A DNA stretch of 64,000 bases. Origin: Candidatus Woesearchaeota archaeon. GTDB lineage: Archaea; Nanobdellota; Nanobdellia; Woesearchaeales; UBA10216. The DNA lies in contig JACPCV010000003.1 of the NCBI GenBank assembly GCA_016184345.1, forward strand, positions 110,094-174,093, read 5' to 3'. A program made the translations under genes and the position numbers. Shown here in pieces: positions 57,773-60,109 of this stretch; position 1 is the first letter of the stretch, and each line of letters begins with the position of its first letter. The notes under the pieces are model-generated. The model had not been told where the DNA came from and did not search any database. It saw nothing but the letters and a program-made list of their open reading frames with translations.

Positions 57773-60109
57773 TTGGGGGTAGTGAGTTTGGTGCTTTCCG
57801 AGGAAGAGGTAAGAAAGTCGTTTACCCGGGTTAAGGAAAATATTCTCCAGATAAAGCGCTCGCTCAACAAGCAGGCCTTCTCTGTTGAGGAAATAAACAA
57901 GGCAATTGGCAATGCCCTTGGCAAGGAAGAGTTCTATGCGTTTATCAAGCGCCTTGGCTCAAAGATTGAAGAGCTGGAAAACAGCTTCCCGGAAAAGTCT
58001 GACAAGGAAGACGTTGATGAGATGGTTTCCGGGCTGCGCGAGGAGATTGCAGCCCTGAGGAAGCTCTTGCAGCAGCGTGATGGCCTTCTCGAAGAGGTTC
58101 GCGAGGTTCGCTCCCTCAAGGGCAAGGTGCTTGAGCTTGAAGGCAGCTCTGTTTCAAGGGCGGAATTCTCAAAAGAGGCTACAAAGCTCAAGGCTGACCT
58201 TGCGTCTGTTAAGGCATCTTCTTCATCATCCGCCAAAGAGCTTGATTCGCTTTCAGATTCATTATTCTCATCTTTGTCAAAGCTCAGCACTAATCTTGCA
58301 GACCTGAGTGCGAAGTTCAACTCGCTCACGGCAAAGGCAGTTGTCAAGGAAGACATCTCATCTTTCACAGATAGGATTGAGTCCTCGCACCAGGAGGCCT
58401 TGCGCGGCTTTTCTGCTCTGAAGCGCGATGTTGATAGGAAAACAGCTTTCGCCAGAACCGTTGAGGAGGAGCTGTCATCATTCAGCGAAAAGCAGTCCGG
58501 GTTTGAGGCAGCATTTGGCGAAAAGTTGTCAGAGTTTGATAATACACTTAGCAAAAAGCTGTCTGGCTTTGAGAGTGCGCTTGCAGCCGTGCACGATACT
58601 GTTTCAAAGAAGCTCGTTGACAAATCAGCATTTGAGAAAAGCATAGGCGAGTTGCGCTCAAAGCTTAGCGATGCCCAGAAGCTTCTCGAGTCCTCAATGA
58701 ACGAGGTGAACATTGATGATTATGCCACGAAGCGCTCGGTGAAGCAGCAGCTTGCTTCCCTCTCCGACTCGCTCAGCTCATCTGTTTCCGCTGCTGTTGA
58801 GGGGCATCTGCAGTCACTGAAATCGCAGCTTGACTCTGTGCAGAAAAACGTTGAGAAGCAACTAAAGAGGGAAAGTGACAGGTTTGCAGCCGCGAAAGAC
58901 CTTGACAGGGTGCGCGAAGAATTTGAGAAAATTTCATCCGGCATTGTTCCCCCTGATGAGCTGTATTCAAAGTTTGACAGGCTGGAAAATGCCTCATCCA
59001 AGGCTCATGATGAGTTCAGGAAGGAGGTTAAGCGCCAGAGGGAGCTTTTTGAGGAGCATCTTAAGTCCCTTGAGTCATACTACCGCTCTTCCAACGACAC
59101 CCTGAAGGCAGAGGTTGAGCAGCTTCGCAGCAGCATAAAGGCCCTTTCAAAGGCCGGCGAGCAGGCAAAGGTTGAGATGGCGAAGATAAGCACTTCTGCT
59201 GCCAAGGTAGCTGCCAAGACAGCTGCTGACCTTATTGAGGAGGCAGAGGAGGATGCCAAGGGCAGTAGTAAGGAGAGCAGGCGCGGCAAGGGTCTGTCGC
59301 CTCTCGCAGTTTCAGTAATAATTGTTGCCCTGCTTTTAATCGGCTCTGTCTCTTATGTCCTGCTGAAAGGCGGTGAAACCCCCGAGCAGCCCTTGGAGAA
59401 TGTTACTCAGCCTATTATCCCGCCCATAACAGCTGAGCCTGAGCCGGTTGTCCAGCAGCCGTCGCTGCCTGAAGAACTGCCGCAGCAGCCTGCCTCTGAA
59501 GCCCCAACTCCGACAGCAAACGCAACGATTCCATCAAACATATCATCCAACTTGTCTGCTGAAGAGCCGTCTGCCAACGTTTCGCCCATTGTAAGTGAGT
59601 TACCCCGTGATAAAAACGAGGAATGCAGGAAGTTGCTAGAGTGCCAGCAGCGCCCGGACGGCCAGTTCGGGTTTGACTGCTACTTTGACAATGCCACCGG
59701 CCAGTGCCGCTGCTTTGTTGGCGGGATTGAAAAATGCCCGAAGCTGCTGGTTGAGAATGAGACTGCTAGAGTAAATGAGTCTGCCGTGGAAGGCGGGAAG
59801 GAAGGAAAGGCTCCTGGCTTAAGGTATTACGGCATCGTGGCCTTTATCGTGCTTGTTGTTGCCTTCTTTGCTTACCGGACTTTGTTTGTGAAGGAGGATG
59901 GGGAGGAGAAAGGCGAGAAAGCTGTGAAGGCAGAGAAGTCCAGAGAAACCCAAGTCGAGCGAAACTCGACTGGGCCCAGTCGCCGAAAGGCGACTTGGGA
60001 GCCGAAGATTAAGGAAGAGAAGGAGCCTGAAAAGCCCGATGAGGGCGAAGTTGATGACGTTATTGACCTTGAGGAGTTCTTTGAGAAGAAGGAGACTAAG
60101 AAGAGATAG
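57773..60109 (+). CDS. Large coiled-coil membrane protein with two TM helices and a Pro-rich/Cys-rich loop
   Basis: 778-aa ORF with a heptad-rich N-terminus and two hydrophobic helices. Confidence 0.85.
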   Translation: MGVVSLVLSEEEVRKSFTRVKENILQIKRSLNKQAFSVEEINKAIGNALGKEEFYAFIKRLGSKIEELENSFPEKSDKEDVDEMVSGLREEIAALRKLLQQRDGLLEEVREVRSLKGKVLELEGSSVSRAEFSKEATKLKADLASVKASSSSSAKELDSLSDSLFSSLSKLSTNLADLSAKFNSLTAKAVVKEDISSFTDRIESSHQEALRGFSALKRDVDRKTAFARTVEEELSSFSEKQSGFEAAFGEKLSEFDNTLSKKLSGFESALAAVHDTVSKKLVDKSAFEKSIGELRSKLSDAQKLLESSMNEVNIDDYATKRSVKQQLASLSDSLSSSVSAAVEGHLQSLKSQLDSVQKNVEKQLKRESDRFAAAKDLDRVREEFEKISSGIVPPDELYSKFDRLENASSKAHDEFRKEVKRQRELFEEHLKSLESYYRSSNDTLKAEVEQLRSSIKALSKAGEQAKVEMAKISTSAAKVAAKTAADLIEEAEEDAKGSSKESRRGKGLSPLAVSVIIVALLLIGSVSYVLLKGGETPEQPLENVTQPIIPPITAEPEPVVQQPSLPEELPQQPASEAPTPTANATIPSNISSNLSAEEPSANVSPIVSELPRDKNEECRKLLECQQRPDGQFGFDCYFDNATGQCRCFVGGIEKCPKLLVENETARVNESAVEGGKEGKAPGLRYYGIVAFIVLVVAFFAYRTLFVKEDGEEKGEKAVKAEKSRETQVERNSTGPSRRKATWEPKIKEEKEPEKPDEGEVDDVIDLEEFFEKKETKKR
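59949..59999 (+). repeat. Family B palindromic element, short 51-nt form, in-frame
   Basis: CCCAAGTCGAG-CGAAA-CTCGACT-GGGCCC-AGTCGCC-GAAA-GGCGACTTGGG. Confidence 0.88.

Follow-up and report, generated by a model that had tools for sequence, protein, structure and literature searches.

A double-hairpin element within a protein-coding gene

The 64,000-nt stretch of DNA analysed here (the window; positions 110094-174093 of contig C2 in genome G000, an 884-kb, 85% complete assembly from a Candidatus Woesearchaeota archaeon) carries on its plus strand an open reading frame (ORF) of 778 amino acids (57773-60109), whose product matches no Pfam family above cut-off. The predicted protein consists of a coiled-coil-like amino-terminal part, hydrophobic segments, a Cys-rich part and, downstream of the last hydrophobic segment, a K/E-rich carboxy-terminal tail of variable length. 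Within this tail, 36 codons upstream of the stop codon, lies a 51-nt double-hairpin element (59949-59999, plus strand) that is in frame with the host ORF, in phase 1, and encodes 17 mostly polar or charged residues (TQVERNSTGPSRRKATW). The element reads CCCAAGTCG-AGCGAAACT-CGACTGGGCCCAGTCG-CCGAAAGG-CGACTTGGG, is flanked by AAA on its 5' side and AGCC on its 3' side, and belongs to a repeat family, family B, with CCC/GGG as stem bases.

Comparison with other genomes of the genus (congeners) shows that the element is a recent in-frame insertion. The protein reads ...AEK(P/S)RE|KPKAKE... in G004 and G009 and ...AEKSRE[17 aa]EPKIKE... in this genome, while at the DNA level the empty GAAA|AGCC of G004 and G009 corresponds to GAAA[51 nt]AGCC, with no duplication and no base lost; read further upstream, the filled site is GAGAAA|..|AGCC against GAAA|AGCC in G004. 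The split target spans 59945-60000 of the plus strand, with GAAA 5' and A 3' of the element. The 17 residues are absent from all host-protein tails recovered, which come from nine loci in 8 of the 10 congeners (those of G010 and G002 were not recovered), and the central motif of the element is found inside the gene at none of the 11 other orthologous loci. Because the orthologous sites in congeners are empty, the element is a precise 51-bp insertion without target duplication. A sequence-only reading of this DNA had predicted an empty allele of the form ..EKP.., and such an allele is indeed present in G004, G009 and G001. DNA contigs assembled from the runs of two studies, from which this DNA may itself derive, contain the filled allele in the main strain and no empty-allele joint, and the extra DNA depth across 59936-59999 stems from other copies in the community.

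Each half of the element forms a hairpin of its own. Hairpin 1 (59949-59974, plus strand) has the form CCC-A-AGTCGAG / CGAAA / CTCGACT-GGG, in which the A at position 4 is unpaired, and hairpin 2 (59975-59999, plus strand) has the form CCC-AGTCGCC / GAAA / GGCGACT-T-GGG, in which a T four bases before the end is unpaired. The single-strand fold of the 51 nt consists of these two adjacent hairpins, with a minimum free energy of -34.6 kcal/mol and a z-score of -5.05 that none of 200 shuffles equals. The centre of the element is a 16-bp perfect palindrome, and the central 16-mer pattern occurs at three sites in the window against 0.05 expected, a number reached by 0 of 100 shuffles. The remaining two sites are 96-nt composite copies on the minus strand, one in rpl13 (23080-23175) and one in sufC (50199-50294). 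The scaffold and loops of the 51-nt element, the multiple-of-three lengths of all three coding copies (51, 96 and 96 nt) and their common sense orientation had been noted in the sequence-only reading and are confirmed here, although the orientation is set by the flanking A-run, as described below. The difference in reading frame also holds: the rpl13 and sufC copies are read as CCC-ACG-TCx (PTST..) and the 59949-59999 copy as xCC-CAA-GTC (TQVE..).

Structure and distribution of the family

A covariance model was built from an alignment of 98 copies, all from other genomes and none from G000. The model matches 59949-59999 with 68.2 bits (E value 4.9e-14) over model positions 1-50 of 50 and with exact ends, which is the top match of the window and of the whole G000 genome; the site thus scores far above background in a model made from other copies, as had been expected of a true family member. 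A strict scaffold pattern collects 112 copies, which are spread over nine of the 11 genomes that represent the genus; 14 of them are in G000, and 105 of the 112 sequences are distinct. The genus divides into element-rich genomes (G000, G001, G004, G005, G006, G007 and G009) and others with few copies or none (G002, G008, G003 and G010). The double-hairpin unit ranges from 46 to 54 nt in size, with CCCA and TGGG as invariant ends, and the same 34 invariant scaffold bases recur at more than 100 unrelated sites. When the criteria are relaxed, about 23 copies are found in G000, including degenerate and composite forms. Beyond the genus, the strict pattern gives no hit in 30 genomes from other genera of the family and order, a reversed-pattern control also giving none, and the covariance model finds weaker variants in only two of a sample of 150 other genomes of the order. 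The variant in genome G059 keeps the architecture and the AAA flank and has different stems.

The architecture of the family can be written as XXX-A-stem-loop-stem'-X'X'X' followed by XXX-stem-loop-stem'-T-X'X'X', where XXX is CCC in the 59949-59999 element. In the 98-copy alignment, 99.4% of the cells are paired under this two-hairpin structure. The number of double-change cells is 193, compared with 53.4 in shuffles, and a value of 193 is reached by 0 of 500 shuffles; sliding the hairpin partners abolishes the covariation signal. Since the collecting pattern fixes the invariant positions, independent information comes from the N positions only, and kinship among copies can inflate shuffle tests of this kind. 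In all but two of the 224 hairpins (222) the variable stem dinucleotide is paired, four pair types being used, and the apical segments, of which there are 137 distinct sequences, add at least one further stem pair in 218 of 224 hairpins, compared with 59 of 224 after shuffling. An alternative fold, with an outer 9-bp helix and an inner palindrome, was rejected: it is without covariation, and in 60 of 94 sequences the bases of its column pair 6/51 do not pair.

No solo hairpin occurs among the family-B copies. In five apparent cases the partner hairpin is present with CAC/GTG or CTC/GAG as stem base instead of CCC/GGG, a compensatory change. In G000, two B-like copies whose partner hairpin has CAC/GTG as stem base (C6:25387-25435 and C6:127549-127597) lie in near-identical contexts that contain a T-arm-like sequence (CCGGGTTCAAAT..), and both contexts may be tRNA genes with introns that are not called by ARAGORN. 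Several copies in G004 and G001 are located at contig ends or within about 100 bases of them (for example G004:C165:1-50, C175:9-59 and C14:73-120; G001:C115:8-55), so that the double-hairpin repeat seems to break short-read assemblies.

Insertion into A-runs

Empty sites were identified by BLASTing the flanks of every copy separately against the available DNA. Exact empty/filled pairs were obtained in five cases plus sufC, and all six insertions lie within an A-run and have a duplication of 0; the four BLAST-found pairs other than the host gene and sufC read AAA|AAA (twice), AAA|A and GAA|AA. The three flanking positions are 43-52% A over 221 element ends, and AAA, GAA or AAG is found at 102 of these ends. 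Together, the flank composition and the empty/filled pairs indicate that the target is an A-run, that it is cut after two or three A, and that the orientation of the element relative to it is fixed. The family-B scaffold is nearly its own reverse complement, and it is for this reason that the flanking A-run can define the orientation of a copy; with the A-run placed 5', the left hairpin is usually of the AATCG type and the right hairpin of the AGTCG type. Within the genus, an orthologous site may be filled in one species and empty in another, which shows that the family moves at the DNA level. An empty site is also located within the window at about 4495-4506 (G000:C2:114588-114599), and the orthologous coding position in G009 (L092) holds a 48-nt in-frame copy.

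A second palindromic repeat, TTTTTGATTGACCTTTTT...AAAAAGGTCAATC, is found in the window at 26228-26261, 35706-35739 and 43487-43508 and at many other loci. The T/A runs of this repeat are a favoured landing site for family B: 35 of the 112 copies lie within 25 nt of its GATTGAMC/GKTCAATC core, a motif with a frequency of 0.1 per kb in the genome. Family-B copies are often nested in the second repeat, and the proS copy of G000 is one such case.

Most copies are intergenic, their stems show covariation and remain paired although the sequences are very diverse, and their 16-bp palindromic centre is perfect. These features would also be expected if the repeats were functional sites under selection, either for a dimeric DNA-binding protein or as RNA hairpins that end or stabilize transcripts, with the genic copies as by-products; on the strand opposite to the A-run, moreover, the hairpins are followed by a T-run, as in a terminator. 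The orientation of neighbouring genes shows no clear bias of the kind that a terminator would have, since among the non-coding copies 28 gene 3' ends read into the hairpin-plus-T side, compared with 26 cases in which a gene starts on that side. The presence or absence of copies at orthologous sites between close species and the restriction of the family to one genus also argue against conserved functional sites, and the intergenic enrichment can be attributed to A/T-run targeting combined with selection against hits in genes. We therefore regard functional sites as an unlikely explanation for the family.

One intergenic site (GGCAGGAA^AAAAAGGGG) is filled in four species (G000:C3:147567-147617, L074, L104 and L121), and the four copies, which are 48, 48, 50 and 51 nt in length, differ in their apical stems and loops. 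Either this site is a hot spot that has been hit repeatedly, or hairpin tips turn over fast in a manner that preserves pairing.

The different apical sequences at this shared site would also suit a process without any enzyme, in which copies arise and stay perfect through template-switching during replication or gene conversion between palindromes. Quasi-palindrome correction yields complementary apical stems, and the apical stems of family B are always complementary; in addition, no transposase was found (see below). A de novo origin cannot, on the other hand, give the invariant scaffold at more than 100 sites, the exact ends or the A-run target, and template-switching or gene conversion as the source of the copies is therefore considered very unlikely.

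Copies inside genes

The coding status of copies was assessed with a codon-usage score trained on G000, which in test windows identified 90% of the true frames with a false rate of 5%. The score places 17 of the 112 strict copies in coding frames. Essential genes entered by the element include rpl13, sufC, proS and a sugar kinase. Sixteen of the 17 coding-like copies have a length of 48 or 51 nt, and the remaining one (L103) measures 52 nt. The sequence-only reading had proposed that the frequency of lengths divisible by three be compared between coding and intergenic copies, and the comparison gives 16 of 17 coding-like copies against 58 of 95 other copies (Fisher p = 0.010). Phases 0, 2 and 1 are used by nine, five and three of the coding-like copies, respectively, and the peptides fall by phase into three unrelated types, PKS..DWAQS..RLG, NPSR..STGPSR..DLG and TQV..STGPS..TW; the peptide of L103 switches element frame midway. 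The use of three phases with unrelated peptides, together with the covarying hairpin pairs, bears out the suggestion that the unit is a structure at the nucleic-acid level rather than a module of peptide.

The A-run lies on the sense strand in all 16 coding copies that can be oriented. Since 6303 of 9269 coding runs of four or more A (68%) lie on the sense strand, 16 of 16 would be expected by chance with a probability of about 0.002. In the opposite orientation, the message would contain the hairpins followed by a T-run and would resemble an archaeal termination signal, and copies of this orientation are probably selected against. Coding DNA contains 80% of the runs of four or more A and only 15% of the copies (17/112), which suggests that most hits in genes have been lost. 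The targeting of A-runs would also account for the position of coding copies after Lys and Glu codons and for the different frames in which they are read.

These filters bear on whether the element is translated or is cut out of the RNA, acting either as a small new intron or as a target of the splicing endonuclease of archaea, to give a protein without the 17 residues. One congener copy does lie in a tRNA-like region with an intron. RNA-level removal from a coding gene would have to be exact and in frame, and under it neither the length nor the sense orientation of a copy would matter, yet the coding copies show both the multiple-of-three and the A-sense bias; such filters are needless if the element is excised from the message, and we take the insert to be translated. 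In both the minimum-energy and the centroid fold there are two closed hairpins, with unpaired flanks and bulges of a single base, and no bulge-helix-bulge; specifically, a pair of 3-nt bulges on either side of a 4-bp helix with the exon is not seen, and an archaeal bulge-helix-bulge intron was rejected as a candidate. Apart from the A-run, the flanks differ from copy to copy, so that no conserved exon-intron helix is possible, and Rfam yields just two matches, both at chance level and far under the gathering scores. Removal at the RNA level is thus highly improbable.

The ROK-type sugar kinase is a case of two independent hits in one gene family. In G004, a 48-nt in-frame copy (L134; G004:C10:4007-4054) is located at TAGFLK^KGRLE, and the G000 orthologue is empty at this site and carries its own 99-nt composite copy nearer to the amino terminus.

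Composite copies and a sister family

The two composite copies of the window differ from the 51-nt element by an additional module. The rpl13 copy is placed after ...GCAAAA in a Lys-rich amino-terminal extension that is shared, without the element, by G001 and G004. None of the 10 congeners has the sufC copy, and in their matches query residues 112 and 145 are joined without a gap; the insertion site of this copy is AAGAAA|AAT..., which falls between residues 107 and 108 of the solved SufC structure 2d2e. Both copies thus occupy positions at which an insert is apparently tolerated.

To characterize the additional module, G000 was scanned by shape alone, that is, for any XXX followed by A, a stem of at least 5 pairs, a loop, the closing bases and a mirror unit ending in T-X'X'X'. 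The scan finds 24 elements, compared with none in the reversed genome, and their stem bases are CCC in 14, GCA in eight, ACA in one and CAC in one. Four of the eight GCA elements lie inside hairpins of family B, including those of the rpl13 and sufC copies. The nested element of the rpl13 copy spans 23088-23135 (C2:133181-133228; 30.4 bits) and that of the sufC copy, identified by both the shape scan and the covariance model, spans 50207-50254 (C2:160300-160347); in each case the nested 48 nt are a complete double-hairpin element with GCA/TGC stem bases. When the nested unit is removed, the hairpins become CCCACGTCG-CTGTTG-CGACGGGG in rpl13 and CCCAAGTCG-CTGCTG-CGACTGGG in sufC, with the two commonest apical sequences of the family. 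As removal leaves ordinary hairpins, the 96-nt form can be understood as one double-hairpin element nested in another. The earlier view of this form as the core plus an extra module is thereby upheld and refined, in that the extra module is a complete member of a GCA sister family.

A free-standing degenerate copy that resembles the sister family is located at 62626-62671 of the window (TGCAAATTGG..CCGATTGCA|CATTCCGC..GCGGAATTGTG), and the family-B model gives it 22.8 bits (E value 0.0014). The window also contains two 174-nt direct repeats of family D1 (29984-30157 and 30584-30757), which are 74% alike and 600 nt apart.

Mobilization of the element

Our analysis makes it likely that the 51-nt sequence is a non-autonomous mobile DNA element, similar in kind to the Rickettsia palindromic elements (RPEs) and the repetitive extragenic palindromes (REPs), that is translated into a 17-residue insert of a charged tail. 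As other copies of this small element do, the recently inserted one lies precisely within an A-run (AAA^A), without target duplication or base loss and in an orientation fixed to the A-strand. According to this model, an enzyme acting in trans would recognize the shape of the hairpins and their conserved stem bases, probably on single-stranded DNA, in a manner that may be likened to 'peel and paste' systems of the HUH type. Copies that survive in genes would be those that are a multiple of three long, free of stop codons and placed with the A-run on the sense strand; these would then be transcribed and translated, and in the host protein the 17 residues would extend a K/E-rich tail in which little harm is expected. 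A hairpin at each end, a target that is short and specific, the lack of a duplication and strand specificity are the marks of a single-strand HUH-type transposition product, and on these grounds a HUH-type mechanism is the most likely kind.

Several observations weigh against this model. No candidate transposase or recombinase was found in G000, an 85% complete genome, among Y1_Tnp, TnpB, IS110 and Phage_integrase, other families not having been searched. Copies that lie outside genes also show an excess of multiple-of-three lengths (58 of 95, compared with one third; p = 4e-8), for which simple selfish spread offers no explanation, and the near-perfect pairing of highly diverse apical stems is likewise unaccounted for by such spread; both features may be signs of a function or of a templating mechanism. 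In addition, L103 (G009:C16:2324-2375), the 52-nt copy in an apparently coding frame, is the sole exception to the length rule among coding-like copies, and it is from sequence that we infer the translation of the 17 residues in the host protein.

The searches for individual enzyme families can be summarized as follows. Y1_Tnp (RAYT/IS200, PF01797) has no match in G000, and matches occur only in G002, which is free of the element, and in G005. TnpB is found only in G001 and G009, that is, in two of the nine element-bearing genomes, and at the congener loci of both TnpB and Y1 the covariance model detects no element ends. Neither IS110 nor Phage_integrase has a match in G000. The Y2_Tnp search gave no match in any control genome and is therefore uninformative for G000. 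Phage_integrase (PF00589) was matched in all 14 control genomes, so that G000, to the extent of its 85% completeness, has no recognizable Xer-type recombinase.

A broader proposal, which we put forward only tentatively and think less probable than not, is that these elements represent an undescribed class of archaeal mobile DNA that is defined by its double-hairpin shape and not by sequence, targets A-runs without duplication, nests within related elements and steadily supplies new in-frame loops to essential proteins of genome-reduced DPANN archaea, and that is moved by an enzyme other than a recognizable transposase. This enzyme could possibly be a host nuclease, a repair protein or an activity supplied by a virus or by a host cell.

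Relation to known repeats and implications

Elements of the IS200/IS605 type and their miniature derivatives insert beside a short specific target without duplication, have hairpin ends and are tied in orientation to one strand. The double-hairpin family shares the duplication-free insertion at a short target, the end hairpins and the one-strand orientation, but differs in that G000 has no TnpA and that TnpB, found in only two of the nine element-bearing genomes, lies at loci without element ends. A classical MITE (a miniature transposable element with inverted repeats) was rejected, as there is no target-site duplication in the five exact pairs or in sufC and no autonomous insertion sequence with the same ends among the families searched.

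RPEs are described, in the passages devoted to them in PMC10969869, as lying in frame in unrelated housekeeping genes, presumed to be translated, and lacking a transposase of their own; they are about 150 bp in length and each family encodes a conserved peptide (PMC10969869). As far as these passages go, in-frame insertion in protein genes and the lack of an own transposase are common to RPEs and the double-hairpin element, which is set apart from the RPEs so described by its archaeal host, its size of 46-54 nt, its use of three frames with unrelated peptides, its A-run target and its two-hairpin architecture. CGTC-tagged REPs, in the account given in part of PMC3733652, are hairpin units inverted head-to-head, some of them in genes and some nested, without a transposase, and RPE-4 and RPE-6 are classed there as CGTC-type REPs without a dedicated transposase (PMC3733652). 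Short inverted hairpin units, variable stems and loops on a conserved tag, and genic and nested copies are found both in the REPs and REPINs of that account and in the family reported here. In contrast to REPs and REPINs mobilized by RAYT, family B does not carry the GTAG tag (its ends being CCCA/TGGG), has no monomers, and occurs in G000 without a RAYT gene; in contrast to CGTC-REPs, CGTC is present in only 19 or 20 of 224 hairpins (CG-type), most being AGTCG or AATCG.

A further resemblance is to the double-hairpin elements (DHEs) in the mitochondria of Schizosaccharomyces and chytrid fungi, which the relevant part of PMC10085805, citing Paquin et al. 2000, describes as small, G+C-rich and presumed mobile, with no enzyme known for them, and which are located between genes and inside rRNA genes (PMC10085805). 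To judge from that description, the likeness lies in two adjacent G+C-rich hairpins that act as one mobile unit and is one of form only, DHEs residing in the organelle genomes of eukaryotes and family B in an archaeal genome. The double-hairpin element is thus apparently an undescribed archaeal relative in kind of RPEs, REPs and DHEs, and not a member of any of them by tags, size or host. No description of such a family in DPANN archaea was found in the literature covered, which leaves out most subscription journals.

The present analysis contributes the A-run, duplication-free signature of insertion, the filter for the sense strand in genes, the nested sister family and the lack of an identifiable mobilizing enzyme. 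For genome annotation, such inserts yield apparent 'loops' of 16-33 residues in conserved proteins, in addition to breaking assemblies. The insertion signature, the architecture common to the sister families and the lack of a known transposase in G000 provide a handle for finding the enzyme behind RPE-like, CGTC-REP-like and DHE-like elements. Although the small genomes of DPANN archaea are regarded as streamlined, strict copies reach a density of about 20 per megabase in this genus, and the 50-nt element enters essential genes and is apparently tolerated in them.

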